This document shows positions 26,882-56,550 of a stretch of DNA of 64,000 bases, piece after piece. Both the position numbers and the translations under genes were made by a program. This stretch comes from Turneriella sp. (GTDB lineage: Bacteria; Spirochaetota; Leptospiria; Turneriellales; Turneriellaceae). Under the pieces are notes generated by a model, which worked only from the letters and a program-made list of their open reading frames with translations, was not told where the DNA came from and did no database searches. The stretch spans positions 4,224,001-4,288,000 of the forward strand of contig CBDIID010000003.1 in the NCBI GenBank assembly GCA_965279515.1, given 5' to 3'. Position 1 is the stretch's first letter. Every line of letters starts with the position of its first letter.

Positions 26882-27252
26882 AGACTGCCCTTAAAATACT
26901 CCTCGTTGCCTATCTCGTTGTGCTGCTCGTGCTGGCCTTTCTGCCGCTCACGGGTTATTATGCCGGGCTCGGATCGCTTCCGGTGATCGGTTTCTATCTC
27001 TACCGGAAAATTATTCTCGAACGCAGCGCCGAAGGCGAGGTGCTGACACGGCCGGTTTTCCTTCTGGCCTGTGTGGTCTTTGTATTCGGTTTTGTGTTAA
27101 ATCTTTTCTGCACGCTCTACACGACATACAAGATGGCCGAGTTCCGCATGGGCATTGAAGAGCAGAAAAAGAAAATATATGGTGAACCTGGGGCCATGGA
27201 TGGCCAGGGTTCGCGCAGCACAGGAGGCGCCTCCGGGCGCGAAACCAAGTGA
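26878..27252 (+). CDS. Hypothetical membrane protein (C-terminal tail encoded by the repeat element)
   Basis: 3 TM; overlaps both neighbours by 4 nt. Confidence 0.65.
   Translation: MKTALKILLVAYLVVLLVLAFLPLTGYYAGLGSLPVIGFYLYRKIILERSAEGEVLTRPVFLLACVVFVFGFVLNLFCTLYTTYKMAEFRMGIEEQKKKIYGEPGAMDGQGSRSTGGASGRETK
27184..27246 (+). repeat. Twin GGA-loop hairpin element, copy A
   Basis: GGCC-ATGGAT-GGCC, then TTCGCGC..GCAC-AGGAG-GCGC..GCGCGAA. Confidence 0.7.
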
Positions 27253-28595
27253 AATTCGATTCCGCAACGCTGAAATTCTCCATTTCGGGACTCAGGGGTG
27301 TTTACCCCAACGACATCTCTCCCGATAAATGGGTCGAGTACGTGCGCGCCTTTGCGGCGACTGTACCCGCGGGCGGTATCGCGTTGGCGCGCGATGCCCG
27401 TGCGACGGGGCCTGCGCTGGTGAAAATCGCGGCCGGTGTGCTGACACTTTTGGGCCGCGAAGTGCATGATCTCGGTCTTGTGCCGACTCCGACCATTAAG
27501 GCTTATGTAAAAATCAAAAAACTGGCCGGTGGGCTGATGGTCAGTGCCTCGCACAACCCCGCCGAGTACAATGCGCTTAAATTCATCGGCAAAGAAGGCT
27601 TTTTTTTCGACGTAGCCGCTAACGAACGTTTCTCTTCGGCGCTCGATGCCTTGCCCGACTGGGGCGACTGGCGCAAGCAGGGTAAAATTATTGAGGCGCA
27701 TGCAGCGGCGATTGAGTTGCATACCGCGAGTATTCTTAAAGTAATAAAGAAACCCAGGCGCCGGCTGAAAGTCGTAATCGATCCTGTCGGATCGTGCGGC
27801 GGCGAGATTGCGGTGCATCTGCTGAAGAAACTGGGAGTCAAATACGAAGCGATCCATCTTGCCGAAGTCAATGAGTTCCCGCGCCCACCCGAGCCGACCG
27901 CCGACGCGCTGGGTAAGCTCGCAGCGGCCGTCAAAAAACATAAAGCCGATGTCGGTTTTGCTTTCGATCCCGATGCAGACCGCCTTTCCCTGGTAGACGA
28001 AAAAGGCCGTGCGATCGGCGAAGAGTATACCTTACCTTTGGCTATCCTGTCAGCGGCAAAGCCGGGCGGCATGATCGTCGCTAACCTTTCTACCTCGATG
28101 CTGACGGAGAGCGCTGCGCAGTTAAAGAAATGCAGGTTCATCCGCTCGATGGTCGGTGAGGCCAATGTCGTTGCCGAAATGTTGCGCCGCAAATCCGTTC
28201 TGGGTGGCGAAGGCAATGGTGGTGTCATTGATGCGCGTGTGCCGTCGTTCGGCCGCGACGCGCTCGCTGGTATGGCGCACGTGATAGCCCTCGTTGCTTC
28301 GGGCAAAAAGCCGCTTTCTGCGTGGGTTGCTACGCTGCCGCGCTTTACCATGGTGAAGCAGGTGCGTAAAGGTGTGAGCGCCGAGGGTATTGCGGCGGCG
28401 GCCGACCAGGCGAAGAAGCTCATCACCGGTGCCATCGTCGATATGCGCGACGGCGTGCATGTCAGCGGCAAACTTGCCGGCTCCCCCGTCTGGATTCACC
28501 TGCGTTCGTCGAATACCGAACCCGTTGTACGTCTCATCGCCGAAGCCGATTCTGAAAAAAATCTACAGTTGCTCCTCGATGGAGTTCACCTATGA
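27249..28595 (+). CDS. Phosphohexomutase (PGM/PMM/GlmM family)
   Basis: SASHNP, FDPDADR, GGEGNGG and RSSNTEP. Confidence 0.92.
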   Translation: MKFDSATLKFSISGLRGVYPNDISPDKWVEYVRAFAATVPAGGIALARDARATGPALVKIAAGVLTLLGREVHDLGLVPTPTIKAYVKIKKLAGGLMVSASHNPAEYNALKFIGKEGFFFDVAANERFSSALDALPDWGDWRKQGKIIEAHAAAIELHTASILKVIKKPRRRLKVVIDPVGSCGGEIAVHLLKKLGVKYEAIHLAEVNEFPRPPEPTADALGKLAAAVKKHKADVGFAFDPDADRLSLVDEKGRAIGEEYTLPLAILSAAKPGGMIVANLSTSMLTESAAQLKKCRFIRSMVGEANVVAEMLRRKSVLGGEGNGGVIDARVPSFGRDALAGMAHVIALVASGKKPLSAWVATLPRFTMVKQVRKGVSAEGIAAAADQAKKLITGAIVDMRDGVHVSGKLAGSPVWIHLRSSNTEPVVRLIAEADSEKNLQLLLDGVHL

Positions 28596-29092
28596 AAGTT
28601 CTCTACCGCGACAAAGAAATCGCTTTTACCCTGGTGAAAACGCGTTTTGGCGATAAGCCGCTATTGCAGTATCCGCCTGCCGCCGGTATTCTCGCCGTCG
28701 AACAGGTGAAATCGAAAAAAAAGTTCCTCTGGCTGGTCGAACAGTACCGGCTCGGTTCGGGCGCAAAATCGTGGGAGATTCCCGCAGGCAAAAAGAAACC
28801 CAACGAGACTATTCTGCAGTGTGCCAAGCGTGAGCTTGCCGAAGAGGCGGGTTTTGCCGCGCGCCGCTGGAAGAAATGCCTGCAGTACCATCCCGCCATC
28901 AGTTTTTCAACCGAAGTTTTGCACCTTTTTTCGGCGCGCGGGTTATCTGAGGCGATCGCCGAGCACGACGACGACGAAGTGTTTTCGAATAAAAAGGCAT
29001 TTAGCCAGACCGAGATGCTGCGGATGATGAAAAGCGGCAAGATCAGCGATTCGAAGACGTTGCTTGCGCTCTGGTTGTTCGATAAACTTTAG
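28592..29092 (+). CDS. NUDIX hydrolase (ADP-ribose pyrophosphatase-like)
   Basis: EIPAGKKKPNETILQCAKRELAEEAG Nudix box; ISDSKT. Confidence 0.88.
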   Translation: MKVLYRDKEIAFTLVKTRFGDKPLLQYPPAAGILAVEQVKSKKKFLWLVEQYRLGSGAKSWEIPAGKKKPNETILQCAKRELAEEAGFAARRWKKCLQYHPAISFSTEVLHLFSARGLSEAIAEHDDDEVFSNKKAFSQTEMLRMMKSGKISDSKTLLALWLFDKL

Positions 29093-29141
29093 TTGAAACT
29101 CTTTCTCTTGCCGTCGGGGCCGCGATCTTTCACAAGGTTGT

Positions 29142-30137
29142 ATGCGTATATCTGTTATCGGTGCGGGCTCGTTCGGCACCGCGCTTGCAAAACTGACGGC
29201 CGAGAACGGCCACGACGTACTGATCTGGAGCCATAGCGCTGATACCGCCGAAGCAATCCGCGCGAATAAAGAAAATTCGATTTATCTGAAAGGCATTACT
29301 TTGCCTGATTCGATCAGGGTCACGACAGATTTTGCAGAGGCAGCGCAGCATGCCGAACTTGTCGTCAGCGCAACGCCGACGCAGGCGATCCGCGAAGTTT
29401 ACTCAAAAGATGGCCGGGCGGCGAAACTGAACGTACCGATTGTCGTCGCCTCCAAGGGCATTGAAAAGAAATCGCATATGCTCGTCTGCGATATCTTCAA
29501 GGATATTTTCGGCGATGCAAAGAAGGGAAACCTGTTCTTTCTCTCTGGGCCGTCGTTCGCGCGCGAGATGGCGCTGAAAATGCCGACGGCGATCACGATA
29601 GCCGGCTACGATAGCACGCGCTTGCCTGATATACAGAAGGTATTTCACAATGAATATTTTCGCGCCTATGCGACGCCCGACGTGATCGGCGTCGAGCTCG
29701 GCGGCGCGCTGAAAAACGTCATGGCGATTGCCACGGGCATCGCCGACGGCCTCAAGTTTGGCAGCAATACGCGCTCGGCGATTATCACGCGCGGCCTCGC
29801 GGAGATAGCCCGGCTGGGTGAAAAGCTCGGCGCGAAACCCATCACTTTCATGGGTCTTGCCGGTATGGGTGACCTCGTGCTCACATGCACCGGCGATCTC
29901 TCGCGTAACCGTACTGTTGGCCTCAAGCTCGGGCAGGGCATGACGCTCGCTGCGGTGCAGAGCGAGATGCGTATGGTTGCCGAGGGTGTGCCGACGACCG
30001 AAAGCGCGCATGAACTCGCGCAGAATCTGGGTGTCGAGATGCCGATCACCGATGCAGTCTTTAAGGTGCTTTATGAAAACAAACCTGCACTCGAGGCCAT
30101 CAAAGAACTCATGGGCAGGTCTATTAAATTTGAGTAA
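29142..30137 (+). CDS. gpsA: NAD(P)H-dependent glycerol-3-phosphate dehydrogenase
   Basis: GAGSFGTA, SKGIE, SGPSFA, GGALKN, GDLVLTC and SRNR. Confidence 0.96.
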   Translation: MRISVIGAGSFGTALAKLTAENGHDVLIWSHSADTAEAIRANKENSIYLKGITLPDSIRVTTDFAEAAQHAELVVSATPTQAIREVYSKDGRAAKLNVPIVVASKGIEKKSHMLVCDIFKDIFGDAKKGNLFFLSGPSFAREMALKMPTAITIAGYDSTRLPDIQKVFHNEYFRAYATPDVIGVELGGALKNVMAIATGIADGLKFGSNTRSAIITRGLAEIARLGEKLGAKPITFMGLAGMGDLVLTCTGDLSRNRTVGLKLGQGMTLAAVQSEMRMVAEGVPTTESAHELAQNLGVEMPITDAVFKVLYENKPALEAIKELMGRSIKFE

Positions 30138-30173
30138 TTTGTAATCAGGTAGGATTTCCGTCGACTAACAAGC

Positions 30174-30674
30174 ATGAAAAATACGAACGTATGGCTCACT
30201 GCCGTTGCAGCAGTTTTTTTACTCAGCTGCGGCCGTGGCCCCGAAGCCGCGCCACCTAAGGTAAAAGGAGGATTTCCTATGTCACAAAAAATCCAAAAAT
30301 CCGATGCCGAATGGCAGAAAACTTTGACGCCCGAACAGTTCTATATTCTGCGCAAGCAGGGCACCGAGCGCCCCTTTACCGGCAAATACCACGACCACCA
30401 TGAGAAGGGTATCTACCTCTGTGCCGCGTGCAAAACCCCGCTTTTCGATTCGCAGACCAAATTCGAGTCCGGTACGGGATGGCCGAGTTTTTACCAATCC
30501 GTGAAAACGGAAAATGTCGAAGAGTTGAGCGACACCAGCCATGGCATGGTGCGCGTCGAAGTGCGCTGCGGCAAATGCGGCGGCCATTTGGGGCATGTCT
30601 TTGACGACGGCCCGAAGCCGACGGGCCAGCGCTACTGCATCAATTCAGCGTCGCTGGATTTTCAAAAGAAGTAA
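30174..30674 (+). CDS. msrB: Peptide-methionine (R)-S-oxide reductase with N-terminal lipoprotein signal
   Basis: [23 protein letters not shown] and RYCINS; lipobox LLS-C. Confidence 0.95.
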
Positions 30675-31946
30675 CTAATCTTTCAGCGCGGATTTCAGTT
30701 CGCGCATCGAATATTCTTTGCTGTAAAAACCCGTCAGCGTATGGATCAGTTCGCCGTCGGGTTTGGTCAGCACAACCGTCGGCAAACCGCGGATGTTGTA
30801 GCTCTGCGCGAGGCGGTCGAGCTCGTCGGTCGGGCTGGAATAATCGATGCGTACGGGTAAGATTTTATTTTCAAGGGCAAAATTGATGAACTCATCCTTG
30901 ACAAAGAGCTTTTTTTCCATCTCTTCGCAGGCGGTGCACCAGTCGGCCCAAAAATCAATGAAAAGAATCTTGCCTTCTTTAGCTGCGACAGCTTTGGCTT
31001 CAGCGAGGTCTTTATACCATTTGAGTTTGCCTTGCGGCAGCGACATGGTGATTTTTTTGCCCGCGTCGCTGACAGCGCCGTTATTGTTTTTCACCTCGAC
31101 GCCCCAGTATTTTACGAAGGGCGAGGTGAAGAGAAAGAGTCCCAAACCGGAGATCATGAGCATTCCCGCGGTGTTGATTTTGAGTCGTGTCGGCATCGGA
31201 TGCTCCCTTTTCATGGGTTCTGAAAGAATAAAAAATGTCACGCACATGGCGAAGCCAATGACTGCGAACGGAAACGCCTGCGCTACCGGGGGGAAATCCC
31301 CCGCAAGATCTTCGAGATAATGAAAGCCGGCGGCGATCAGCGTCACGGCGCCTGCATATTCAACCGCATGCAACCAGACGCCGGGTTTCGGCAGGCGGAT
31401 CGAAAAAAGACCGATAAGCAGAAACGGCACACCCATGCCGAAGGCAAAGGCGAACGCCGCGAGCGACGGCAAAATGACCGATTGCTGCTCGCCCGCGTTT
31501 TTGCCGATCTGCACGAGCAGGTTGCCGAAGAACGGCGCTGTGCACGGCGCGGCGATGAAGGCTGAAAAGATACCGAGAATCAGCGGGTATGCCAGGCCAT
31601 CTTTCTTACCCACCTGCAGCCGGTTGGCAAAATTAGGTAGTGGCAGGGGCAAAAGATGCGCATAGGCGAGGCCGAGATAGATAAGGATTAAACTGATGGT
31701 CGTGATGACATAGGGGTTGCCGAAATATTTGCCGAACACGGCGCCTGTGAGCGCGGCGATGACACCCAGTGAACCATAGGTCAGCGACATGCCGAGCGTA
31801 TAGATGCCCGCGGCTTTAAAACCCTGCAGCCAGCTTTTACGCTCGCCGCCGACAAAGATGGCGGTGGTGATCGGTATCAGCGGATAGACGCAGGCGGAAA
31901 AGGAGGAGATGAGGCCCCAGCTGAATGCCGCAAAGAGCATGGACAT
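30675..31946 (-). CDS. DsbD/CcdA-type transmembrane disulfide reductase with C-terminal thioredoxin
   Basis: ACVYPLIP and APCTAP (TM Cys pair); FWADWCTAC. Confidence 0.88.
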   Translation of the reverse strand: MSMLFAAFSWGLISSFSACVYPLIPITTAIFVGGERKSWLQGFKAAGIYTLGMSLTYGSLGVIAALTGAVFGKYFGNPYVITTISLILIYLGLAYAHLLPLPLPNFANRLQVGKKDGLAYPLILGIFSAFIAAPCTAPFFGNLLVQIGKNAGEQQSVILPSLAAFAFAFGMGVPFLLIGLFSIRLPKPGVWLHAVEYAGAVTLIAAGFHYLEDLAGDFPPVAQAFPFAVIGFAMCVTFFILSEPMKREHPMPTRLKINTAGMLMISGLGLFLFTSPFVKYWGVEVKNNNGAVSDAGKKITMSLPQGKLKWYKDLAEAKAVAAKEGKILFIDFWADWCTACEEMEKKLFVKDEFINFALENKILPVRIDYSSPTDELDRLAQSYNIRGLPTVVLTKPDGELIHTLTGFYSKEYSMRELKSALKD

Positions 31947-32035
31947 GCGGGTAATATATCAAATGTCAAACGCCGCGGCGAGAAGTAAGCCGCCGGATAG
32001 CGCTTGACGGTTACGGCGGCTCAGCAAGTAAAAAT

Positions 32036-32944
32036 ATGCGAATTTTTCTTCTGCCGCTGGCGCTGTTATTTCTGGCCTGCGCTTCAGGCACTACATCGTC
32101 CGGTACCGAAGTCAAAACAATTCTCGAAAAACAAAACTCCCGGTTTGGCCTCGTCAGCGTCCATGATGCCGGTGGAAAAAGATTCATCAGCATCGGCCAG
32201 CAGGAACAATCCGGTGTGAATCTGGCGAATAAGAGAGAATGGGTCTATACCTACATGTATCTGCTCTCGCTCGGCATTCTGGCGGTCGAGCACGGCGCCG
32301 CTGAGCGTCCGGCGCGTGTTCTCGTGATCGGGCTCGGCGGCGGCAGTTTTTCCGATTTTCTCGCCGAAGTTTATCCGCGCTGGAATGTCGACGTCGTCGA
32401 AATCAATCCCGCAGTCATTCGGCTCGCGAAAAAATATTTCCCGATCGATAAACGTGTTAATATCATTGAAGACGATGGCCGCGCTTACCTCAAAAAAACC
32501 AAACAGAAGTACGACGTCATTCTCATGGATGCATTCGGGGAACATTATATTCCGCCCGAACTCTATACCCTCGAATATTTTAACCTGCTAAAAAGCCGCC
32601 TGGTTCCCGGAGGACTTACCCTCATGAATACCTGGGAAGGGAACCCGCTCGAAGCGCAGGAGATTATGACGCTGCGAAACGTGTTCGCGCGCGGCTACTG
32701 GATTCATAACCCGAGGGAGACGCCGGGGAACCGTATCTATATACTGGGGGATAAACTCGACAGCGAGGAGATAATCAAAAAGAGAATTGCTGAAGAATTT
32801 TCCCGGAATAAATTCACGGGCTCATCGCCCGGCGACATTCTGGCGGCGATGCAGAACCTCTATAAACAAAACCTAACCGCAGAACCCATGACCGACCGGA
32901 ACATCGGTGCGCTGTTCAAAAAATACCGCAAGACCTGGGAGTAG
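32036..32944 (+). CDS. Spermidine-synthase-like SAM-dependent transferase with lipoprotein signal
   Basis: LVIGLGGG, VVEINP, DDGRAY and YDVILMDAF; LFLA-C. Confidence 0.82.
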   Translation: MRIFLLPLALLFLACASGTTSSGTEVKTILEKQNSRFGLVSVHDAGGKRFISIGQQEQSGVNLANKREWVYTYMYLLSLGILAVEHGAAERPARVLVIGLGGGSFSDFLAEVYPRWNVDVVEINPAVIRLAKKYFPIDKRVNIIEDDGRAYLKKTKQKYDVILMDAFGEHYIPPELYTLEYFNLLKSRLVPGGLTLMNTWEGNPLEAQEIMTLRNVFARGYWIHNPRETPGNRIYILGDKLDSEEIIKKRIAEEFSRNKFTGSSPGDILAAMQNLYKQNLTAEPMTDRNIGALFKKYRKTWE

Positions 32945-32946: not shown

Positions 32947-35136
32947 CTACTTTTCCGTTAACACTTCAAAGCCGCGCCAGTCGGCCGGTGGGAATTTCAG
33001 GTGCCTTTCGATGCGCTCAAGGTAGAGTTTGAGCGTCTTGTCGGCGGTATTCTCTGCCGCCATTTGCAGGAAGGCCGTCTTGGCATCGCTGAACTTGCCT
33101 TCCTGGTAGAGTGCCAGGGCTTTGGTAAAATCGGCGGCCTGTCTTTGTTTCATGCGCTTCTTCTCATCGCTATCGCTGTTGAAGACCTCGATGAGTCCGA
33201 CCGGTTCGTTCTTGCCTTTGACCGCTACACGATCGACGAGCCGGTAGAGGTACTTTTCTTTCTGCTGAATGTCGTTCCACGAGACGTCGGAGATCAGCGT
33301 ACCCGCACCATAATTTTTCGTGAGGCTTTCAATGCGCGAAGCGAGGTTGACGGCATCGGCGATGACTGTACCGTCCATTCTCTGGTGCTCGCCGATCGTA
33401 CCCAGCATCACGCGGCCGTGGTGCACGCCGATGCCGATTGCAACGGGGAGGAAATTATGCTTCGCGCGGCGGTTATTCCAGTCAAAAACACGTTCATGCA
33501 TCGAGAGCGCCGCCTCAAGGGCATCGGTTGCTGCACCGCTCCGCGGCAAAGAGGGCATCCTGCCCGCCGCGGAGTCAGGGCCTCCGTGCCCTCCAGGAAA
33601 TAGCGCCATCACGGCATCACCGATATACTTGTCGATAAAGCCGTGGTGGTCGCGTATGACCGGACCGACCTTGTCGAGGTATGAATTAATAAAGTCAAAA
33701 TTTTCCTTGGGTGTCATCTTCTCTGACAGCGAGGTGAATCCGCGGATATCTGAAAAGAGCACCGCCATATCGCGCTGTACCTGGTCGCCGAGGTTGACGT
33801 CGAGAATGCTCTTCTTATCGAGCATGGTGAGGAATTCAAACGGCACAAAGCGCCGCGAAGCCGCATTAAATTTAGAAAGGCTTTCGTTTAATGCCTCGGT
33901 TTCATCATGGAGACGTACGAATCGGTTGGCCAGCACGAGCGCCATTGATATTATAAAGAAGATAAAAACATAGGTCAATAGCGGTGGCAGGTTGATTTTC
34001 GCCTGCCCGCTGAGAATATCGAGAATCATCGCTGCCAGCAGAACGACGAAGCTGACAATCATGATGATTGCATCGCGGTTTTTTCGTGCCACTTCGCGGA
34101 ACAGTATGAAAGCAATGCCGATAATGTAAAAGAACCAGATATACGTAACGACATTGTTCTGCAGGAAATCCCAGGTTTTGACATCCGGAGAAAACACCAC
34201 CGCCGCGGCCACGCCTGTGATAATAACATTGGCACCAATCACCGAATAGTCCCAGATCTTCACCCAGCCCGTAACAGGCCACTTGTAATAATGCCGGATA
34301 AAATAATAGAACGAAGGTACTAGCGTGAAGAGCGACAGGTACTGGATGCGTTTCCAGAAATACAGATTTAACCCGTATTGGTATTTAAGCTGCGTGTGCA
34401 GCGCACTGTAGACGACCAGTGCCAGGGCAAACAGCGCAAAATAAAAATTTTCGCGATCATGGCGGCGGCGGATAAAAAACAGGAAAAAATAAAGCCCGAA
34501 GGTCAGGTAACAGACGAGGGCAAGCGAACTCCATAGATTTTGCAGGTAGAACTCACGGTACATAAGCGCTGCCGGCCCGATTTCGGTGCGATCGCGGTAG
34601 ATGCCCAGTTCTTTTTCCAGCACACCCTGAACCTCGACGGCAATCTCGTTGACCCCGGCCTTGAGCGCACCCGCAGGGATCGAGTAGAGCCGCGTCTTAT
34701 CATAGGCCTGCGGTTCGGGCCGGCCCATCTCACCGGTTTCGCCGATCAGCACGCCGTTGAGGTAGGTGCGGTCGCGGTCGTTGATTTCACCCAGGCGGAT
34801 TGCGTACGCCTCGGTGGGTATTTTTTCCAAACGAAAGCGCATGCGGTAGTGGGCGATGCCCAGGCCGCTCATTCCGAGCTGGGGAGCCAGATTCTCCGGG
34901 GTTTTGACGATTTTATAGCCTGCGAATTCATCTTCTGCGACTTTTATTTTTCTGACGAGATTGCCTGCGCTGGGCTGGAATGAAGCGTTTTTTGCATACC
35001 AGATAAAACCGTCCGCCGACGAAAATCCTGCGACTTTTCCCGGCTGAATCTCTTTCGGCACGTTCTCTTCGAGGGCCGCAAGACTACCGCCGCCTGCCAG
35101 AGAGAAGAGGAGCAGAAAGCGCAGTTGTTGTTTCAT
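32947..35136 (-). CDS. 7TM-DISM class III adenylate/guanylate cyclase
   Basis: LFSDIRGFT, DKYIGDAVMALF, GIGVH and DAVNLASRIESL; 7 TM; N-terminal sugar-binding-like domain. Confidence 0.9.
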   Translation of the reverse strand: MKQQLRFLLLFSLAGGGSLAALEENVPKEIQPGKVAGFSSADGFIWYAKNASFQPSAGNLVRKIKVAEDEFAGYKIVKTPENLAPQLGMSGLGIAHYRMRFRLEKIPTEAYAIRLGEINDRDRTYLNGVLIGETGEMGRPEPQAYDKTRLYSIPAGALKAGVNEIAVEVQGVLEKELGIYRDRTEIGPAALMYREFYLQNLWSSLALVCYLTFGLYFFLFFIRRRHDRENFYFALFALALVVYSALHTQLKYQYGLNLYFWKRIQYLSLFTLVPSFYYFIRHYYKWPVTGWVKIWDYSVIGANVIITGVAAAVVFSPDVKTWDFLQNNVVTYIWFFYIIGIAFILFREVARKNRDAIIMIVSFVVLLAAMILDILSGQAKINLPPLLTYVFIFFIISMALVLANRFVRLHDETEALNESLSKFNAASRRFVPFEFLTMLDKKSILDVNLGDQVQRDMAVLFSDIRGFTSLSEKMTPKENFDFINSYLDKVGPVIRDHHGFIDKYIGDAVMALFPGGHGGPDSAAGRMPSLPRSGAATDALEAALSMHERVFDWNNRRAKHNFLPVAIGIGVHHGRVMLGTIGEHQRMDGTVIADAVNLASRIESLTKNYGAGTLISDVSWNDIQQKEKYLYRLVDRVAVKGKNEPVGLIEVFNSDSDEKKRMKQRQAADFTKALALYQEGKFSDAKTAFLQMAAENTADKTLKLYLERIERHLKFPPADWRGFEVLTEK
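33539..33592 (-). repeat. Twin GGA-loop hairpin element, copy B (in-frame within the cyclase domain)
   Basis: Minus strand: AGGGC-ACGGAG-GCCCT-GA-CTCCGCGGC-GGGC-AGGAT-GCCC-TCTTT-GCCGCGGAG. Confidence 0.82.
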
Positions 35137-45474: not shown

Positions 45475-45978
45475 CTATTCTTGTTTGCCGCGGTTGTAAT
45501 CGACCTCAGAGCGGCCAATGCGGATGAGATAATTTTCGGCGTAGGGAAGTTTCGAGACGTCGACGGAGATGAGTTCCTTCACCTCTTTCGCGCTGCGCTC
45601 GTACTGCAGCAGCGCGCTGCCGCTCTGTTCGAGACGCGCGGTTTCCGTAAAATTATGTTTGCGGAAACTCGATTCATAATAGGCGACAATGTCCTTCAGG
45701 TTGTGGTTCGTTTTCTGTAAAATCGTCGACGCACGGCCATCCGTGGCCGCGTCGACCTTGGCACGTCCGTGTGCCATCGGATTATCGACGCGGTAAATTT
45801 CTGCCTGGGGGTAGAGAAGCGAAAGCGAACGGACAAAATCCGGCGCGTCGGAAGGAGAACCTTTGGGCGGTAACTTATCTGACACCGCAATCGCCGTTTC
45901 GGAGTCCTTTTTACCGCACGCGGAAGCCGCCAAGGCAAGTAAGCTGGCGCAAAAAAACGAGGTTATCCGCCTCTGCAT
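45475..45978 (-). CDS. Hypothetical lipoprotein containing repeat copy C
   Basis: Lipobox ASA-C; 1 nt from the AI-2E start. Confidence 0.72.
   Translation of the reverse strand: MQRRITSFFCASLLALAASACGKKDSETAIAVSDKLPPKGSPSDAPDFVRSLSLLYPQAEIYRVDNPMAHGRAKVDAATDGRASTILQKTNHNLKDIVAYYESSFRKHNFTETARLEQSGSALLQYERSAKEVKELISVDVSKLPYAENYLIRIGRSEVDYNRGKQE
45725..45776 (-). repeat. Twin GGA-loop hairpin element, copy C (inside the lipoprotein CDS)
   Basis: Minus strand: TGGCAC-ACGGAC-GTGCCA-AG-GTCGACGC-GGCC-ACGGAT-GGCC-GT-GCGTCGAC. Confidence 0.82.
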
Positions 45979-46364: not shown

Positions 46365-46679
46365 ATGGTATTCTTATTCGGTATGCCCAATCTCGGCGAG
46401 ATGATCTTCCTCGTCATCATCATCCTTCTGCTCTTTGGCGGCAAGAAGCTCCCTGAACTCGCGCGCGGCCTCGGTGCCGGTATCCACGAGTTCCGCCGTG
46501 GCATGAATGCAGGTAACGAACCAGCATCGACGCAGACACATGCTCCGGCGCCAGCAACTGAGCGTGACGTGACCCCCGGTGAGAACGAAGCACCGCGCAA
46601 GTCGCGCGCCCTGCCGCAGCCCAAACGGGCCGCGCGCCCCGCAGCAAAAAAGAAAGCCGCTGCGAAAAAGAAAAAATAA
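46365..46679 (+). CDS. tatA: Twin-arginine translocase TatA/E subunit
   Basis: LLLFGGKKLPELARGLG..EFRR. Confidence 0.92.
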   Translation: MVFLFGMPNLGEMIFLVIIILLLFGGKKLPELARGLGAGIHEFRRGMNAGNEPASTQTHAPAPATERDVTPGENEAPRKSRALPQPKRAARPAAKKKAAAKKKK

Positions 46680-46683
46680 TCGT

Positions 46684-46737
46684 GATGCACGAGGCATCTG
46701 ATAGGCGACGGGCAAGGATGCCCTCTCAAGTCGCCTA
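46684..46737 (+). repeat. Twin GGA-loop hairpin element, copy D (tatA-argB intergenic)
   Basis: GATGC-ACGAG-GCATC-TGA-TAGGCGAC-GGGC-AAGGAT-GCCC-TCTCAA-GTCGCCTA. Confidence 0.82.
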
Positions 46738-46752
46738 ATTTTAGCCAGACAG

Positions 46753-47643
46753 GTGATCAGCATCGAATCCGGTCTGGCCCACTCCCGCGAACGCATCGAA
46801 ACCCTGCTTGAGGCGCTGCCCTATATACAGCGCTTCGCGGGTAAGACCATCGTCATCAAATATGGCGGTGCGGCGATGGAGAAGGCCGACCTCTCCGCCA
46901 AGTTCGCCCAGGACGTTGTTTTACTCAAACTCTGCGGCATAGACCCTGTGATTGTGCACGGCGGCGGCCCGCAGATCAACCAGCTGCTCGAGCGCCTCGG
47001 CGTGAAATCCACCTTTATCGACGGCCACCGTGTCACGGGCGACGCTGAAATGGCCGCGGTCGAAATGGTACTTTCGGGCGACGTAAATAAAAAGATCGTC
47101 GCGCAGATTGCTCGAGCCGGCGGCAAGGCCGTGGGTTTGTCGGGCCGCGACGGTGCGCTCGCGCATGCAGAAAAACATTTTCTCGAACGCAGCGGCAAAG
47201 AGAATGTCGATCTGGGCCGTGTCGGCGCGGTGAAACCCGGCGGTGTCAATATCCAGGTTCTCAACGTGCTGAAGCAGGGCGGGTTTATCCCCGTGATTGC
47301 CCCGGTGGGTTTTGACGCCGACGGTAACTCGCTCAACATTAATGCCGATACCATGGCAGGTGCGATCGCCGCGGCGCTGGGCGCTGAAAAACTGCTGCTG
47401 CTCACGGATACGCCGGGTGTCATGCACGAAGGCAAAACCCTGACGCGGCTCTCTCCCGGTGATGTGAAAAAGCTCAAGGCGGATGGCATCATTTCAGGCG
47501 GTATGATTCCGAAAGTCGACTGCGCTGTGTCCGCTGTGGAAAACCATGTCAACGCGGCGCACATCATCGACGGCCGCGTGCCGAATGCACTCCTGCTCGA
47601 AATTTTTACGGATTCGGGTGTTGGTACGATGCTCGTTCGCTGA
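46753..47643 (+). CDS. argB: Acetylglutamate kinase
   Basis: IKYGGAAM, VHGGGPQI, NINAD, GGMIPK and LLEIFT. Confidence 0.96.
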   Translation: MISIESGLAHSRERIETLLEALPYIQRFAGKTIVIKYGGAAMEKADLSAKFAQDVVLLKLCGIDPVIVHGGGPQINQLLERLGVKSTFIDGHRVTGDAEMAAVEMVLSGDVNKKIVAQIARAGGKAVGLSGRDGALAHAEKHFLERSGKENVDLGRVGAVKPGGVNIQVLNVLKQGGFIPVIAPVGFDADGNSLNINADTMAGAIAAALGAEKLLLLTDTPGVMHEGKTLTRLSPGDVKKLKADGIISGGMIPKVDCAVSAVENHVNAAHIIDGRVPNALLLEIFTDSGVGTMLVR

Positions 47644-50562: not shown

Positions 50563-51441
50563 CTACGCAGCTCCCGCTTTGGAGAGGGATTTTTCCTGGA
50601 TCGCGACATAACGCTCGGCGATACGCTGCGCGAGATGGCGCACGCGGGCGATATACGTCTGCCGTTCTGTCGGCGAAACGGCGCCGCGCGCATGCAGCAG
50701 ATTGAAGGTGTGCGAACACTTCAGCATGTAGTCATAGGCGGGAAAAACCAGCGGTTCTTTTTCCCAGTCAAGAATACGTTTCGATTCTTCTTCATATTCA
50801 TCGAACCACTTGAAGAGTTTTTTTGTATCGGCGAGCTCGAAGTTATAGTGCGAATATTCCCACTCGGTCTGCGTGTGGATATCGCCGTACTTCATGGTCT
50901 TGTTCCACTGGACCTCGAAAATGCTTTCAACACCTTGCAGGTACATCGCGAGGCGTTCGAGGCCATAGGTGTATTCGACCGAAATTGGTTTCAGCGGCAG
51001 AGATCCGCATTGCTGAAAGTAAGTGAACTGTGTGACTTCCATGCCATTGAGCCAGACTTCCCACCCGAGACCCGAGGCGCCGAGCGTGGGGGACTCCCAA
51101 TCGTCTTGCACGAAACGGATATCGTGCTCTTCGAGCTTGAAGCCCAGCGCTCGCAGGCTGCCGAGGTAAACTTCCTGGGCATCGGGCGGCGACGGCTTCA
51201 TGATAACCTGGTACTGGTAATAATGCTGCCCGCGGTTGGGATTTTCACCGTAGCGGCCATCGGTCGGCCGGCGTGAAGGTTCGACGTAGGCCACGGACCA
51301 CGGCTTGGGCCCCAGCACGCGCAGGAACGTATGCGGGTTAAAAGTGCCCGCGCCGACCTCCATGTCGATGCCCTGGGCGATGACGCAGCCCTGGGCCGCC
51401 CAGTACTGGTTCAGTGTGGCGATGATGTCCTGAAAATACAT
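50563..51441 (-). CDS. glyQ: Glycine--tRNA ligase alpha subunit
   Basis: [33 protein letters not shown] and TYGLERL. Confidence 0.97.
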
Positions 51442-51591
51442 GCGGTAGATTCGCCGCGCTGCGACAGCACGTCACGCGATGTCGGTGCCATGCCCCCCGT
51501 AAACAAGGTAGTTATCCGCGGTTTTCCATGGAATTCCCCCGATTGACCCGGAGCAAAATCTGCGTTAAACCAGCCCTACACGGAGATAACC

Positions 51592-53121
51592 ATGGCAAAA
51601 AAACTCAGGGATCAATATGATGCAATTGTTATCGGTGCCGGTTGCGGCGGCGTGACGGTAGCATCGCTGCTGGCCAAAAAAGGCAGGGATGTCTTGCTTC
51701 TCGAGCAGGGCGATTTTATCGGCGGTTGTTGTTCGACCTTCGAGAAAAAAGGGTTCCGGTTCGATGCCGGCGCTTCCATTCTCGAAGATATCGAAATCAT
51801 TGATCAGGTCTACCAGCGCCTGGGTTCTTCTCTGGCAAAAGAAGTTAAACTCAAGGTCTGCGACCCCGTTTATGATGTGTTGCTCAGCGATGGTTCGAAG
51901 CTGCGTATTCCCCTCGATTCTGACAAGACCGCTGACGAGATCGCGCATATTTCACCGGGGGATGGCAGGCGCTGGAAAAAATACGCCCGCCGCCTCGGTG
52001 AGTTTCTCGACACCGCGCTGCGCGGTTTTTTCGTCATGCCGGCCAATACCCTCGGCGATATGCTGAGAATTTTTAAACGCACGCCTGCGCTCCTGAAATT
52101 CGGTACTCTGTTCGCCGGCAGTTACCAGGGGCTGATGCAGAGATATTTTAAAGACAAACGCATTCTCGAAAGTATGTCGTTCCAGAGCTTCTATGTGGGA
52201 TTACCCCCGGCGCTCGCTCCGGCGTATTTTGCGATGCTGCCTTATTCCGAACACCGCGGCGTCTATTATCCCGAGGGCGGCATGGGGCGCGTTCCCGAAG
52301 GTATCTTACGTCTCGGAAAAAAAACGGGTCTTGAGGTGGCACTGAAAACCGCGGTCGCAAAAATTCTGGTAAAGAACCGCAAGGCATACGGCGTCGAACT
52401 CGCCGATGGCCGAAAGATTTTAAGCTCTGTGGTCGTCTCCGGTATCAATGCCAAGAGCATGTACCAGAAGATGATCGGTCATGAACACCTGCCGTGGATT
52501 GTGCGTGCGGGCCTCAAGAGCTATGAATATTCGATGGCGACGCCGATGATCTATCTCGGCCTCGACTACCGCCCGCCGCTCACGGCGCACCATACATTGG
52601 TGACGATACCCACTGCGGCGATGAACCGATATTGGTACGATTATTATAAGAAGGGGATCTATCCCAAAGAACAGTTCGGCATTATTTGCTGGCCGACATT
52701 TTCTGACCCTGGTATGGCGCCGCGCGGCAAACATATTCTGATTCTGACGCTTGCGCCGGGACCTTACCGGTTAAAAGATAAAAACTGGGATGAGGTAAAG
52801 GAGGAACTGATGGCAGGTATCATCGACTATTATTCGAATAAATATATTCCGGGCCTGAAGGAACATGTCCGGGTCGCCGAGTTTTCGACGCCGCTCGATT
52901 TCGAACGCCGCCTTTTGTCACCCGAGGGCGCCATCTATGCGTTGCGCCAGGATGTGACGAATGCGAGCGTATTTCGTCCCGCGGCGCGCTCGAAAAGTAT
53001 CCGGAATCTCTACCTGGTGGGTGCATCGACGCATCCCGGGGGCGGAGTGCCCACGACGATTGCATCGGGAATGATCGGCGCAGATCTCATCGAAGCTGAT
53101 CTTGCGGGGCGCAAGATATGA
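51592..53121 (+). CDS. Phytoene desaturase (CrtI)-family FAD oxidoreductase
   Basis: IGAGCGG, GFRFDAG, YYPEGG and NLYLVGASTHPGGGVP. Confidence 0.88.
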   Translation: MAKKLRDQYDAIVIGAGCGGVTVASLLAKKGRDVLLLEQGDFIGGCCSTFEKKGFRFDAGASILEDIEIIDQVYQRLGSSLAKEVKLKVCDPVYDVLLSDGSKLRIPLDSDKTADEIAHISPGDGRRWKKYARRLGEFLDTALRGFFVMPANTLGDMLRIFKRTPALLKFGTLFAGSYQGLMQRYFKDKRILESMSFQSFYVGLPPALAPAYFAMLPYSEHRGVYYPEGGMGRVPEGILRLGKKTGLEVALKTAVAKILVKNRKAYGVELADGRKILSSVVVSGINAKSMYQKMIGHEHLPWIVRAGLKSYEYSMATPMIYLGLDYRPPLTAHHTLVTIPTAAMNRYWYDYYKKGIYPKEQFGIICWPTFSDPGMAPRGKHILILTLAPGPYRLKDKNWDEVKEELMAGIIDYYSNKYIPGLKEHVRVAEFSTPLDFERRLLSPEGAIYALRQDVTNASVFRPAARSKSIRNLYLVGASTHPGGGVPTTIASGMIGADLIEADLAGRKI

Positions 53122-53255
53122 GCCCGGTGATCTGGGTGATTCTGGGTGTTGGCGCGGTGCTGCTGGTTTGGCTGTTTGCCAGCAGCGCGCGCCGTCATTT
53201 TATCGCCAGCCTGTTGCGGCAGGCGATCTACCTGATTCCCCGCTATTTCGTCTGA
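53118..53255 (+). CDS. 45-aa single-TM small protein (absent from the ORF track)
   Basis: MSPVIWVILGVGAVLLVWLFASSARRHFIASLLRQAIYLIPRYFV; ATGA overlap with the desaturase stop. Confidence 0.7.
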   Translation: MSPVIWVILGVGAVLLVWLFASSARRHFIASLLRQAIYLIPRYFV

Positions 53256-54014
53256 TTATTTCAGGAATTTTTCCAGGGTAATCAGGCGGTTCACCTCGCC
53301 GGTGGTGTCGAACAGCTTGCCGTTATCGTTCAGTTTAAAGTTGCCGTGCTGCAGGTGGCAGTTGGTGCAGCCGACATTGTTCTTCGCCGACAGCGCCATC
53401 ATCTTCTTGACGATGCGGGCCTTGGCGCCGAGCTTCTTAAAATTCCACCAGGTGGTGATATCGTCACCGCCATCGAGCCACTCTGTCTTCACGATTTCAT
53501 TGGGGGCAATTTCTGACGCGGCGCTGGCACCGTTGGGTTGGAATTTCAGCTTCTCGCCCTCGGCGACGATCTTGCCGGTGAACTCGCCCTTGTCTTTGAT
53601 GGTTACACGATAGTTACAGTTATTAACCCGGGGCAGGTGGCAGGTGCCGCAGGATTTTAAGGAATCGCTGCAGGAATCCGATTCTGCAGGTACTGCTACT
53701 GCAGGCTTGGCAGGAGCGGGAGACGCCGGTTTTTTAGGGGCCGCGATCAGCATTGCAGCGCCTAATTGGGCAAACTCATTGTCATTGAAGCTTTGGTTGA
53801 TTTTGGTTTCTTTTCCCTTGAGTCGGTTCAGTACCTGCTCAATGCATTCATCCTTGATTGGCGCCACGAGGTGGTGGGTCATCTTCAGCATGAAGCGGAC
53901 TTTTTCATCGTCGTTGTTCCAGAGTTTGCCCGGCGTTACTTGCGGTTGTACCGGGGTAGATCCGCATTGGGCGAGAACCGCAAGGAGCAGGGTGGGGATA
54001 AGCAGGCTGCGCAT
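53256..54014 (-). CDS. Diheme c-type cytochrome lipoprotein
   Basis: Lipobox LAQ-C; CGTCH and CTNCH heme motifs. Confidence 0.75.
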   Translation of the reverse strand: MRSLLIPTLLLAVLAQCGSTPVQPQVTPGKLWNNDDEKVRFMLKMTHHLVAPIKDECIEQVLNRLKGKETKINQSFNDNEFAQLGAAMLIAAPKKPASPAPAKPAVAVPAESDSCSDSLKSCGTCHLPRVNNCNYRVTIKDKGEFTGKIVAEGEKLKFQPNGASAASEIAPNEIVKTEWLDGGDDITTWWNFKKLGAKARIVKKMMALSAKNNVGCTNCHLQHGNFKLNDNGKLFDTTGEVNRLITLEKFLK

Positions 54015-54102
54015 CGGCCATTCTGGGCCGGCCCTAAACGGCGGCGACGAAAATTTCAATCTGCTTGACTCGGCTCCCTTAAATCCCGGCTTTGCCTGAA
54101 GC

Positions 54103-54765
54103 ATGAGCGCCAGGGCCCCCTATATCGCCTTCTTTGATCTCGATGAAACGCTGCTCGCGAAAAACAGCGGCCGCGTTTTTTGGGATTATTGCCTCGAACA
54201 CAAGATCTATTCTGCTACCGATGTCAGTTACCTCGGCTTTGCGTTGTTTAAATTCCTGGTGGGCATCGATGACACCGAAGATTTTGTCCGTACCTGGGCC
54301 AGCGTCTTCAGAGGCTGGAGCCAGGAAAAAATGGAAGAAGTGACGCGCGAACTCTTCGATCTGAGAATCAAGCAGATCATACGGCAGGGCGCCGAAGCAG
54401 AAGTCCAAAAACATAAGGCAGCGGGTGCCCGCACAGTGATTCTTTCGGCTTCGACACGTTATGTCTGCGAGCCGGTCAAAAACCACCTCGCCATGGATGA
54501 GGCGCTGTGCACTGCGCTCGCGATCGAGAACGGTAAATTTACCGGTACGCTCGCAAGCCCCTATATCTTCGGCGAACAGAAATATCTCTCGGCGCTGTCT
54601 TATGCGCAGGAACACGGCTACGACCTCTCGCAATGTTATTATTACGGCGATGCCTATACCGACCGTTTTGTCATGGAGGCGGTGGGTTTTCCGGTCTGCG
54701 TCACTCCCGACAGGAAACTCAGGGCGCACGCGGCGCAAAAGAACTGGAGCATCGTAGAATGGTAG
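54103..54765 (+). CDS. HAD-IB family hydrolase
   Basis: FFDLDETL, ILSAS and YGDAYTD. Confidence 0.9.
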   Translation: MSARAPYIAFFDLDETLLAKNSGRVFWDYCLEHKIYSATDVSYLGFALFKFLVGIDDTEDFVRTWASVFRGWSQEKMEEVTRELFDLRIKQIIRQGAEAEVQKHKAAGARTVILSASTRYVCEPVKNHLAMDEALCTALAIENGKFTGTLASPYIFGEQKYLSALSYAQEHGYDLSQCYYYGDAYTDRFVMEAVGFPVCVTPDRKLRAHAAQKNWSIVEW

Positions 54766-54802
54766 TCACGGTAAGGCCGATTTAAGTTCAGTCGGAATCG
54801 GC

Positions 54803-55306
54803 ATGGCAGACGCGGCTCACACGGCCACATACAGTTTCTCACCCCCCTTCGAAAAAAGGTTCCTGGAGATAGAGAAAAAATTTCCCAAACGTTCATCGCT
54901 GGTGCTGTGGTCGTTGCACCTCGCGCAGGAAGATATCGGCTATATTACCCCCGCCGTCGTTGACTATGTCGCCGCGCGTGTCGGGGTCTCTCCCGCATGG
55001 GTCAAGGGCGTCGTTTCGTTCTATTCGATGTTCCGTGAAAAGCCCATCGGCAAGTACCATCTCAATGTCTGCGGCAATCTCATTTGCCAGCTGATGGGTT
55101 CAGATAAGATCGAGAAGTGTATCAAAGACAAGCTGAATATCGGTGACGGCCAAACCACCCCCGACGGCAAGTTTACCTACACCCGCCAGGTCGAGTGCCT
55201 GGCCGCCTGTGGTTATGCCCCGGCGATGCTGGTGAACAATGATTTCCATGAACTTTTGACCCCCGAGTCAGTCGCCAAGCTCATCGACGAACTTTCAGCA
55301 AAATAA
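54803..55306 (+). CDS. nuoE: NADH-quinone oxidoreductase subunit E (2Fe-2S)
   Basis: VSFYSMF, VCGNLIC and ECLAACGYAP. Confidence 0.9.
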   Translation: MADAAHTATYSFSPPFEKRFLEIEKKFPKRSSLVLWSLHLAQEDIGYITPAVVDYVAARVGVSPAWVKGVVSFYSMFREKPIGKYHLNVCGNLICQLMGSDKIEKCIKDKLNIGDGQTTPDGKFTYTRQVECLAACGYAPAMLVNNDFHELLTPESVAKLIDELSAK

Positions 55307-55422
55307 GCAACCACAAGCCTGCCATAGCGAAAACAGCCCGTATCCTTGTTGACGCGGTGTTTTATTTACCTGTTTCTCCGCACGCGGGGATTTGGATCTA
55401 ACCCTTTCGAAAAACCGCATTT

Positions 55423-55495
55423 GCTGCCTTAGCTCAGCCGGTAGAGCAACTGCCTTGTAAGCAGTAGGTCGTCAGTTCGATTCTGACAGGCAGCT
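55423..55495 (+). tRNA. tRNA-Thr (UGU)
   Basis: GCTGCCT/AGGCAGC acceptor stem, CT-TGT-AA anticodon loop, TTCGA T-loop; CCA not encoded. Confidence 0.96.
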
Positions 55496-55497
55496 CA

Positions 55498-55548
55498 AGA
55501 CACGAGGTCTAGAGGTCGGCGGCGCGCATGGACGCGCTCCGTGCCGAC
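55498..55548 (+). repeat. Twin GGA-loop hairpin element, copy E (tRNA spacer)
   Basis: AGAC-ACGAG-GTCT-AGAG-GTCGGC-GGC-GCGC-ATGGAC-GCGC-TCCGT-GCCGAC. Confidence 0.78.
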
Positions 55549-55561
55549 GACCCAGTCTTAG

Positions 55562-55644
55562 GGGTAGGTGGCCGAGTGGTTAATGGCGCTAGACTGTAAA
55601 TCTAGTCTCTCCGGAGTACGAAGGTTCGAATCCTTCCCTGCCCA
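55562..55644 (+). tRNA. tRNA-Tyr (GUA)
   Basis: GGGTAGG/CCTGCCC acceptor stem, CTAGA-CTGTAAA-TCTAG anticodon arm, long variable arm; CCA not encoded. Confidence 0.96.
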
Positions 55645-55651
55645 CAATTGG

Positions 55652-55690
55652 ATCCCTTGCGTGGAGCACCCACGCAGGGGATTTTTATTT
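55652..55690 (+). terminator. Intrinsic terminator after the tRNA pair
   Basis: ATCCCTTGCGTGG-AGCAC-CCACGCAGGGGAT followed by TTTTATTT. Confidence 0.8.
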
Positions 55691-56462
55691 AAAGCTTAAT
55701 CTCCAGCACGACCGGGCAGTGGTCCGAGCCCATATGATCGTTCAGATGGCGAATGTCTTTCACCGCCTTATACAACGGTTCATCGATCACAAAATAGTCA
55801 ATTCTCCAACCGATATTACGCGCCCGCGCATTTGTGATCACCTGCCACCAGGTATACGATACCTTCTCAGGGTATTTCGTCCGGAAAACGTCGACCCACT
55901 TGTCGGCAACGAGGCGGTCGACCCAGGCGCGCTCTTCGGGGCGAAAACCCACGGTTTTCTCGTTCTCTTTGGGGCGCGCGAGGTCGATCGGCTGGTGCGC
56001 GACATTGAGGTCGCCGGTGAAAATGACCTTGTTCTTCTTCTTACGCAGGTCTTTGATGTACTTGTGGAAATGATCGAAAAACACGAGCTTCTCTTTCCAT
56101 GCGGCGTCGGATTTCCCGCCGTTCGGGAAGTAGTTACCGAAGACGACTAAATCCCCCGCTTTGACGCCTAAAACGCGGCCTTCATGGTCGTTCCACTTCG
56201 GCATACCGCGCAGAATCTCTACCTTCGGAAAGAGCTTCTTCTTGATGAAGACCCCTGTGCCCGAATAGCCGGGTTTCTCAGCGCTGTGGTAATGTGCTTC
56301 ATAGCCCGGCGGATTGACCAGTGCGTCGGAGAGTTGCTCGACCTTGGCCTTGATCTCCTGGATAAAGAGGATATCCGGCTTTTCTTCTTTAATCAGCTTA
56401 TCGAGCTCACCTTTTTTCTCAATGGCGCGGATGCCGTTGACATTGAATGAAATAATTTTCAT
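55689..56462 (-). CDS. xth: Exodeoxyribonuclease III
   Basis: SFNVNGIRA, IQEIK, YFPNG, GDLNVAH, GWRIDY and SDHCP; start 56462. Confidence 0.95.
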   Translation of the reverse strand: MKIISFNVNGIRAIEKKGELDKLIKEEKPDILFIQEIKAKVEQLSDALVNPPGYEAHYHSAEKPGYSGTGVFIKKKLFPKVEILRGMPKWNDHEGRVLGVKAGDLVVFGNYFPNGGKSDAAWKEKLVFFDHFHKYIKDLRKKKNKVIFTGDLNVAHQPIDLARPKENEKTVGFRPEERAWVDRLVADKWVDVFRTKYPEKVSYTWWQVITNARARNIGWRIDYFVIDEPLYKAVKDIRHLNDHMGSDHCPVVLEIKL

Positions 56463-56550
56463 GGTACAAGGATGTACCTTGGTCGGCGGCGACAAGGATG
56501 TTCAAGCCCGCCGACCATGGTACCAGGATGTTACCCAAGGTCGGCGGCGA
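56463..56550 (+). repeat. Twin GGA-loop hairpin element, copy F (1.5 tandem units)
   Basis: GGTAC-AAGGAT-GTACC-T-TGGTCGGCGG-C-GAC-AAGGAT-GTT-CAAGC-CCGCCGACCA-T-GGTACC-AGGAT-GTTACC-CAA-GGTCGGCGGCGA. Confidence 0.82.

Follow-up and report, generated by a model that had tools for sequence, protein, structure and literature searches.

A 64,000-nucleotide stretch of the genome of Turneriella sp. (assembly GCA_965279515.1, contig CBDIID010000003.1, positions 4,224,001 to 4,288,000; hereafter the window) harbors six copies of a short twin-hairpin element whose loops carry GGA motifs of the type bound by the regulatory protein CsrA. The stems of this element vary freely from copy to copy without losing their pairing, whereas its two loops and a TCT-rich bulge remain constant. 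We hold with moderate confidence that the element is a genus-restricted structured repeat of about 100 copies that inserts in either orientation, and that RNA of its GGA-bearing strand, as predicted from its loops and fold, would dock a CsrA dimer and serve as a local tag or decoy. An earlier reading of the window, made from its sequence alone (hereafter the original prediction), had proposed a dedicated, sense-oriented sponge system. The data do not bear this out, since the element behaves as insertional DNA, lies in frame in housekeeping genes, and differs in its presence and copy number from species to species.

Architecture of the twin-hairpin element

Each unit is 54-60 nt long, most often 57 nt, and consists of hairpin 1, a linker of 2-4 nt, and hairpin 2, which is built from an outer stem, an inner stem and a mostly TCT-rich bulge on the 3' side. 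The outer stem encloses hairpin 2 only, so hairpin 1 stays outside it. The loops are closed by a C-G pair and read A(N)GGA(T/G) or belong to ACGAG-type variants; in a model-fitted alignment, the closing C-G and the A that follows it are nearly invariant. Most copies have an inter-loop stretch of 20 nt, the GGA-to-GGA spacing within a unit is 26 nt, and the two loops are identical in 7 of 54 copies (judged by eye), which is about what chance would give.

A structure descriptor that held only the twin-hairpin geometry and ignored loop sequence matched 713 loci genome-wide and 13 in the window, including five of the six copies noted earlier; copy 1 was missed because the inner stem of its hairpin 2 contains one mismatch. 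Among the 105 descriptor loci with the strongest stems, GGA occurs in loop 1 of 44, in loop 2 of 44 and in both loops of 34. Loops of the A(N)GGA or ACGA type capped both hairpins at 56 loci, and removal of two unrelated loci (AT-rich, with other loops) left 54 copies. In a MAFFT alignment of all 54 (A1), the stems were put out of register by loops of 5 and 6 nt, and structure was therefore modeled from a seed of 11 copies (A2), which gave a covariance model, R1, with 58 positions and 17 pairs. Run over the whole window with filters off, R1 matched all six copies at 25.9-56.5 bits, the next best match scoring 11.2 bits. The six thus share one architecture, as had been proposed, and the stretches fold into the twin-hairpin layout with C-G-closed loops that the original prediction described.

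Copy number, chance controls and paired stems

R1 yielded at least 99 matches in the genome at E<=1 (150 of 2424 first-look candidates were scored). A separate search with relaxed loops plus pairing returned 89 loci, 77 of which overlap R1 matches while 12 are additional, and we therefore place the copy number at about 100-110, all on the large contig. The density of about one element per 10 kb originally proposed holds in the window (6 copies per 64 kb) but falls to about one per 45-50 kb genome-wide. Tandem arrays, such as the one at C3:4131222-4131388, have a modal period of 57 nt, reaching three units in this genome and up to five in a relative.

Three Markov-3 shuffles of the genome served as chance controls. 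A loop-only motif, consisting of a pair of C-A(N)GGA(T/G/C)-G loops at 18-nt spacing and demanding no stems, was found 47 times in the genome versus 1, 0 and 2 times in the shuffles; 44 of these 47 matches have all three further pairs of hairpin 1, and 42 are structured throughout. Relaxed loops plus pairing gave 89 matches versus 2 and 1 in shuffles, so that by either count the element is more frequent than in shuffled sequence.

The claim that the stems are unrelated in sequence yet complementary was also borne out. When 53 copies were aligned to the model, 97.9% of the 885 cells proved to be paired and 15 of the 17 pairs to vary on both sides; none of 500 shuffles attains the observed pairing values, and no slid register comes near either of them. 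This 53-copy set was selected for pairing, the unbiased check being the loop-only set of 47 matches. Distinct outer arms number 43 of 47.

Copies in the window

The copies in the window, with their R1 scores, are as follows.

27189..27247, plus strand: copy 1; 25.9 bits, E 0.001; the weakest member
33539..33594, minus strand: copy 2; 50.1 bits; in-frame insert of 57 nt (19 aa), sense
45724..45777, minus strand: copy 3; 51.3 bits; in frame in the open reading frame (ORF) 45475-45978 (minus), sense
46682..46738, plus strand: copy 4; 32.4 bits; intergenic
55495..55553, plus strand: copy 5; 32.4 bits; tRNA spacer
56461..56517, plus strand: copy 6; 56.5 bits; full unit between divergent genes
56518..56550, plus strand: partial second unit; hairpin 1 and the 5' arm of the outer stem, repeating the start of the full unit

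Copy 1 forms the 3' end (C-terminal tail) of ORF 26878-27252, to which it is sense. The gene that hosts copy 2 (32947-35136, minus strand) encodes a 7TMR-DISM adenylate/guanylate cyclase whose catalytic domain carries the insert; in this protein, the Pfam domain Guanylate_cyc spans residues 455-644 and 7TMR-DISM_7TM is also present. The host ORF of copy 3 is lipoprotein-like and has no Pfam family. Copy 4 begins 2 nt past the stop codon of a TatA/B-like gene (46365-46679, plus strand) and ends 14 nt short of an amino-acid kinase gene (46753-47643, plus strand), while copy 5 lies between tRNA-Thr (55423-55496) and tRNA-Tyr (55562-55645). Finally, copy 6 touches the start codon of a gene assigned by Pfam to the exo/endo/phosphatase family (55689-56462, minus strand). 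This last copy, originally delimited as 56463-56550, is a real member, but the interval comprises one full unit plus the partial second unit, at which R1 gives no separate match.

Insertion sites and distribution across the genus

Comparison of orthologous sites showed that the twin-hairpin element behaves as insertional DNA, gained and lost between species and tandemly amplified. In-frame inserts of 54-57 nt were confirmed in alignments of the cyclase, of pyruvate dehydrogenase E1beta (PDH-E1beta) and of FlgN. The cyclase insert, 57 nt encoding 19 aa, sits after the residues GDAVMALFP; among 10 homologues, the site is empty in six, retains a 6-aa remnant in one, carries a single unit in this genome, and carries two units together with a partial third in the other two. 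PDH-E1beta of this genome carries a 54-nt antisense insert between its two domains, which is absent in five of six other aligned species, the genome G009 having a shorter, different stretch, and which is also absent, judged from match length, in the remaining six species with a match. Five of 14 species have one or two in-frame units in flgN, placed after codon 8. Orthologous copies at three sites (cyclase, flgN and flaB1) show several stem differences, each matched on the opposite arm, but have retained the loops and the TCT-rich bulge; of some old units, only hairpin 1 is left.

Further hosts, identified by coordinates and Pfam, are RecG, AroA, ThiC, RnpA (two units), TatD, an old-yellow-enzyme homologue and a DUF2071 protein. 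In RnpA, the RNase P protein, the two tandem units have a 60-nt period (G000:C3:3054291-3054410, locus L262, G000 being this genome) and lengthen the C-terminus past the Pfam domain, which covers residues 22-131 of 183.

The copy in the tRNA-Thr/tRNA-Tyr spacer is present in this genome only, of 10 species compared, the other nine having unrelated simple hairpins. This spacer (window 55497-55561; loci L141-L148 and L153) is 47-154 nt long in the genus and contains a different strong hairpin in each species. It seems that some stem-loop is wanted at this place, whatever its sequence.

All 13 other genomes of the genus have R1 matches, between 17 and 62 each at E<=0.001. Outside the genus, only 2 of 27 genomes of the same family, order and class gave matches (four and two), and these were weak. 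A scan of 185,579 species representatives with an exact pattern found 68 loci, which is about the chance expectation; R1 confirms 12 of them, all in six assemblies named Turneriella sp., Spirochaetota bacterium or Spirochaetes bacterium. A species tree built from two proteins had support for three of its nine inner branches and is too poorly resolved to order the gains and losses. Literature searches on Turneriella palindromes, on CsrA together with repetitive extragenic palindromic (REP) sequences, and on miniature inverted-repeat hairpins of Leptospira found no prior description of the element.

CsrA-type loops and the flagellin leaders

The genome encodes both csrA and fliW, whose presence the original prediction had left to be confirmed. 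The two genes are adjacent and lie downstream of a flagellin-N-domain ORF of 419 aa, taken to be flgL, and of flgN, with flgK assumed to lie between these two. The order flgN-flgK-flgL-fliW-csrA is given for the operon of Leptospira (PMC8668096), and we take flgN as its first gene here; the insert in flgN is sense and begins 24 nt into the gene. According to the same report, the CsrA consensus is RUACARGGAUGU, its GGA being displayed in a hairpin loop, and the binding of Leptospira CsrA to flaB leaders is GGA-dependent (PMC8668096). The loops of the element fit this consensus, many of its hairpins letter for letter, in agreement with the assignment of the loops to the CsrA type in the original prediction.

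A native counterpart of the twin loops was found in the flaB leaders of this genome, which have a hairpin with an AAGGAA loop followed 26-27 nt on by the Shine-Dalgarno sequence ACGGAGG. The 26-nt GGA spacing of the element thus equals the spacing from hairpin site to Shine-Dalgarno sequence in the organism's own flaB leader, and an R1 alignment of the flaB1 leader (14.8 bits, E 0.048) takes in hairpin 1 and the second loop. Leader hairpins with A(U/G)GAG loops, resembling the ACGAG-type variants of the element, occur in other species. The flaB1 leaders of 11 species (loci L175-L187) occur in two forms: three species have a short GGGC-AAGGA(A/C)-GCCC hairpin, and in the other eight the same GGGC and GCCC arms enclose a longer insert of several hairpins, among them GAGAC-A(U/G)GAG-GUCUC. 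The Shine-Dalgarno region is invariant in all 11.

From these comparisons, a transcript of the GGA strand is predicted to present two C-A(N)GGA(U/G)-G hairpin loops 26 nt apart. Because this loop geometry matches that of the native flaB leader, each such copy should dock one CsrA dimer through both of its binding faces. A transcribed copy could then act as a local tag, for instance 24 nt into flgN of the flgN-flgK-flgL-fliW-csrA operon, and copies and arrays together could add up to a CsrA decoy.

We also identified an element 130-200 nt upstream of three of the four flaB genes of this genome, in each case antisense to flaB (positions within loci of G000:C3).

L170, 1281-1338: element upstream of flaB, antisense to it
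L172, 1307-1363: element upstream of flaB, antisense to it
L173, 1328-1382: element upstream of flaB, antisense to it

The copy upstream of flaB1 is orthologous in 5 of 11 aligned species, with five units in one of them; relative to a divergent GGDEF-EAL gene, whose ORF is 23 nt away, it lies in the sense orientation. By rough arithmetic, the occurrence of elements upstream of three of four flaB genes is far above chance, although long non-coding regions may simply tolerate insertions. Elsewhere, a three-unit array (G000:C3:4813335-4813505, minus strand, locus L259) has a terminator-like hairpin on either side, one belonging to the upstream gene and the other directly following the array, a layout that could release a discrete RNA.

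Ends of the element and search for a mobilizing enzyme

The 5' flank has CC at positions -5/-4 in 33 of 53 copies; one further copy, at 914813, was left out of this count as misaligned. The five nucleotides before hairpin 1 tend to recur as the last two nucleotides of the outer arm plus the next three. This direct repeat between the 5' flank and the 3' junction has a mean of 4.54 matches of 6 versus 4.12 +/- 0.12, with 0 of 200 shuffles attaining the observed mean, and the excess has a z of about 3.8 in one register. The PDH-E1beta insert lies directly 3' of a CC and itself ends in CC. In the case of flgN, empty sites lack the 5' CCCAG, which may therefore belong to the insert. The terminal direct repeat is either a short target duplication or a terminal redundancy.

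The original prediction had also suggested a search for an HUH/RAYT transposase gene flanked by the element. A single IS200-like Y1 transposase gene (Y1_Tnp, 134 aa) was found, at C3:2616152-2616472 (locus L138, G000:C3:2614652-2617972, ORF 1486-1890). It is bracketed by two near-perfect palindromes with the core GGGAATTAATTCCC, which occurs only at these two places in the genome, and these palindromes are unrelated to the twin-hairpin element. There was no R1 match (E<=0.1) within 1.5 kb of six Y1_Tnp genes in six genomes. A link of the RAYT/REP kind was rejected. Y1_Tnp is present in 11 of 13 genomes of the genus but also in 9 of 27 outside it, only one of these nine having the element.

Integron attC sites, diversity-generating retroelements, group II intron fragments and ribozymes were dropped on anatomy, and no R'/R'' core sites were found. 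The copies have no conserved core outside the loops and the bulge. Miniature inverted-repeat transposable elements have terminal inverted repeats that match a parent insertion sequence; the two ends of the unit here are not mutual inverted copies, the pairing being internal to each hairpin, though no search for a parent insertion sequence was made.

Orientation, gene context and alternative explanations

Several observations weigh against the explanation preferred here. Gene context was assigned from our own crude gene calls (4277 ORFs covering 89% of the genome). Among the 99 R1 matches listed, those within genes comprise 35 sense and 21 antisense copies (p=0.08), and the other 43 are intergenic or at gene edges, where 17 are co-directional with both neighbors, 12 oppose both and 14 are mixed. 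The independent 89-locus set has 28 sense and 15 antisense copies (p=0.066), with 46 intergenic or at edges, and its strict subset 16 sense versus 10 antisense (p=0.33). Antisense and sense copies have similar R1 scores and lie equally near start codons; antisense copies are thus kept as well as sense ones, which would be unexpected if selection acted through host mRNAs. Stem mismatches read on the GGA strand are G-U in 18 cases versus A-C in 11, a difference that is not significant, and therefore the pairing constraint marks no strand as RNA. The dispersed copies are old, with a mean pairwise identity of 63% (83 copies) and only three dispersed pairs at least 85% identical, so that evidence of recent mobility comes from the species-specific insertions alone. 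The two arrays scanned are flanked by no sigma-70-like promoter, the one promoter type covered, and a terminator-like site follows only one of them. Lastly, the searches described above identified no mobilizing enzyme for the element. As its spread is not governed by the direction of transcription, any binding of CsrA would belong to the element itself rather than determine where copies are placed.

The most serious alternative, which we consider possible though on the unlikely side, is that the copies are purely selfish palindromic DNA akin to REP sequences or to Rickettsia palindromic elements (RPEs), with a DNA-level enzyme reading the loops and the bulge in folded single-stranded DNA and the likeness to CsrA sites being coincidental or irrelevant. 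Selfish DNA would account for copies in both orientations in and beside genes, for conservation that is equal in either orientation, for stems in which G-U is not favored over A-C, and for in-frame inserts in housekeeping genes, as described for RPEs (PMC10969869). The CC at -5/-4, the short direct repeat from 5' flank to 3' junction and the PDH-E1beta insert, which follows a CC and ends in one, fit this explanation as well. However, it would be improbable by chance for two loops each to fit a 7-8 nt protein-binding consensus at the spacing of the flaB leader. Moreover, the sole Y1 (HUH) transposase gene has its own palindromes, found only twice in the genome, no element lies near the six Y1 genes surveyed, and the copies show no replichore strand bias (28 plus and 20 minus in one replichore, 18 plus and 17 minus in the other).

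It is very unlikely that the copies form the system originally envisaged, a dedicated sense-oriented CsrA sponge or tagging system distributed over the genome and placed by selection in mRNAs and pre-tRNAs. All six window copies are indeed sense to the local transcription unit, and there is a mild sense excess genome-wide (35:21 and 28:15), a sense copy 24 nt into flgN of the csrA operon in 5 of 14 species, and several sense copies 8-36 nt upstream of start codons. Nevertheless, the excess falls short of significance (p=0.07-0.33), most species lack the flgN and cyclase copies, and the tRNA-spacer copy is found in this species only. Since antisense copies score similarly and lie just as near start codons, the all-sense pattern of the window does not generalize; its high density and its all-sense copies flattered the original prediction.

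We give similarly little credence to RNA punctuation without CsrA, in which copies located at gene ends or in the spacers of operons and tRNA genes would protect RNA from 3' exonucleases, mark sites of processing or terminate transcription weakly. The copies do have a strong preference for such places, 46 of 89 being intergenic or at gene edges versus 10.6% non-coding DNA, and about a dozen lie no more than 16 nt from a stop codon; other hairpins occupy the same place in the tRNA spacers of other species, and a terminator-like hairpin follows one array. Yet this explanation leaves aside why the loops are fixed while the stems drift, and it sits poorly with both orientations at gene ends, with copies that have no T-run of their own and with the many copies deep inside genes.

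Least probable, in our view, is that the opposite strand is the functional one, its AUCC(N)U loops pairing with GGA or Shine-Dalgarno sequences instead of the element binding CsrA: the Rfam model of the Bacillaceae-1 RNA motif represents the strand with UCCU loops and is matched by the reverse strand of elements, and the antisense copies upstream of three of four flaB genes, that of flaB1 kept in 5 of 11 species, would agree with this, but the discoverers of Bacillaceae-1 were not confident of its strand according to Gardner and Eldai (2015; PMC4333381), the flaB1 copy is also sense to the GGDEF-EAL gene, and the mild excess within genes favors the GGA strand.

Significance of a proposed CsrA-docking repeat

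To our knowledge, RNA antagonists of CsrA are established only in Gammaproteobacteria; spirochaetes and Bacillaceae are believed to depend on a protein, FliW. Taking the preferred reading, a genus-wide repeat whose GGA-strand RNA would dock CsrA, one step further, the element could be a mobile CsrA decoy, that is, a selfish insertion tolerated and partly kept because its GGA-strand transcripts bind a CsrA dimer. The flgN copy would then put the operon under the control of CsrA itself, the arrays would be sponge RNAs, and the element and Bacillaceae-1 together would represent the missing RNA antagonists of FliW-type CsrA systems outside Gammaproteobacteria; we regard this extension as speculative and rather improbable.

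A module of about 100 copies that is found throughout a genus, with two consensus CsrA loops at the spacing of the flagellin leader, offers concrete and cheap test objects. It also provides a second clear case, after Rickettsia, of palindromic repeats colonizing housekeeping genes in frame, and the compensatory evolution of its stems, visible at orthologous sites, makes it useful for asking how such repeats move and persist.

Comparison with known systems

REP sequences and bacterial interspersed mosaic elements with their RAYT transposases are, like the element described here, short GC-rich hairpin repeats that are both dispersed and clustered, at about 100 per genome. REP elements carry a GTAG head, whereas the 5' flank here has CC at -5/-4; in addition, the Y1_Tnp gene is flanked by unrelated palindromes, and the copies are not confined to extragenic DNA.

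The sponge RNAs CsrB, CsrC and RsmX-Y-Z (Rfam clan CL00106) share the display of several GGA hairpin loops per RNA, there being two per unit here, and arrays of three to five units would show 6-10. They are highly expressed small RNAs of discrete genes with a promoter and terminator of their own, whereas most copies here are single units within or antisense to other transcripts. Covariance models of these families gave only chance-level scores (RsmW 16.2 versus 52 bits, RsmV 11.7 versus 100, CsrB 9.9 versus 71).

RPEs are described as palindromic repeats restricted to a genus, inserted in frame in unrelated housekeeping genes and also intergenic, with no known transposase (PMC10969869). The alignments of the cyclase, FlgN and PDH-E1beta show the same in-frame insertion into unrelated conserved genes. 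Compared by description only, RPEs are about 150 bp long with a conserved sequence and peptide, in contrast to units of 57 nt with variable stems and CsrA-type loops.

No Rfam family matched the window at its gathering score. On predicted structure, the closest known relative is the Bacillaceae-1 RNA motif (RF01690; Weinberg et al., 2010; PMC2864571) read on its reverse strand, followed by TwoAYGGAY (RF01731). The latter is described as multi-copy, dispersed in Pseudomonas, intergenic and of unexplained function (bioRxiv 10.64898/2026.09.22.753630). It likewise has two small hairpins, with AYGGAY loops that are a subset of those found here. Its two hairpins lie inside one basal stem, however, whereas hairpin 1 here is outside the outer stem, and our element also occurs inside genes. 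RF01731 had no match in the window at gathering, nor in 42 element loci at E<=1 to 10.

RF01690 was the only Rfam family to recur at relaxed thresholds, matching 3 of the 42 element loci (26.0, 23.6 and 19.0 bits) on the strand opposite to GGA. These scores are below the gathering score of 35 bits and do not establish membership; genome-wide, the best match reached 22.5 bits, with none above the cut-off (150 of 663 candidates scored). Aligned over its full length (model positions 1-67), Bacillaceae-1 mirrors the helices, bulge and UCCU/AGGA loops of the element. Read on its reverse strand, Bacillaceae-1 consists of a free hairpin of 4-5 bp, a 3-nt linker and an outer stem around a second small hairpin with an asymmetric UCUU bulge, both loops being AGGA(U/C), so that the conserved pentaloops and the nested hairpin have their counterparts here. 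The two differ in the outer stem (9 bp here versus 7), the loops (mostly 6 nt versus 5), the GGA spacing (26 versus 28 nt) and the phylum. Our element is also dispersed, tandemly amplified and present in genes, features that we did not find reported for Bacillaceae-1. FliW-type CsrA systems are common to Bacillaceae and spirochaetes. CsrA binding has been predicted for the reverse strand of Bacillaceae-1 and for TwoAYGGAY (Gardner and Eldai, 2015; PMC4333381), and the architectural match with the Turneriella element suggests that Bacillaceae-1 be re-examined on its other strand.

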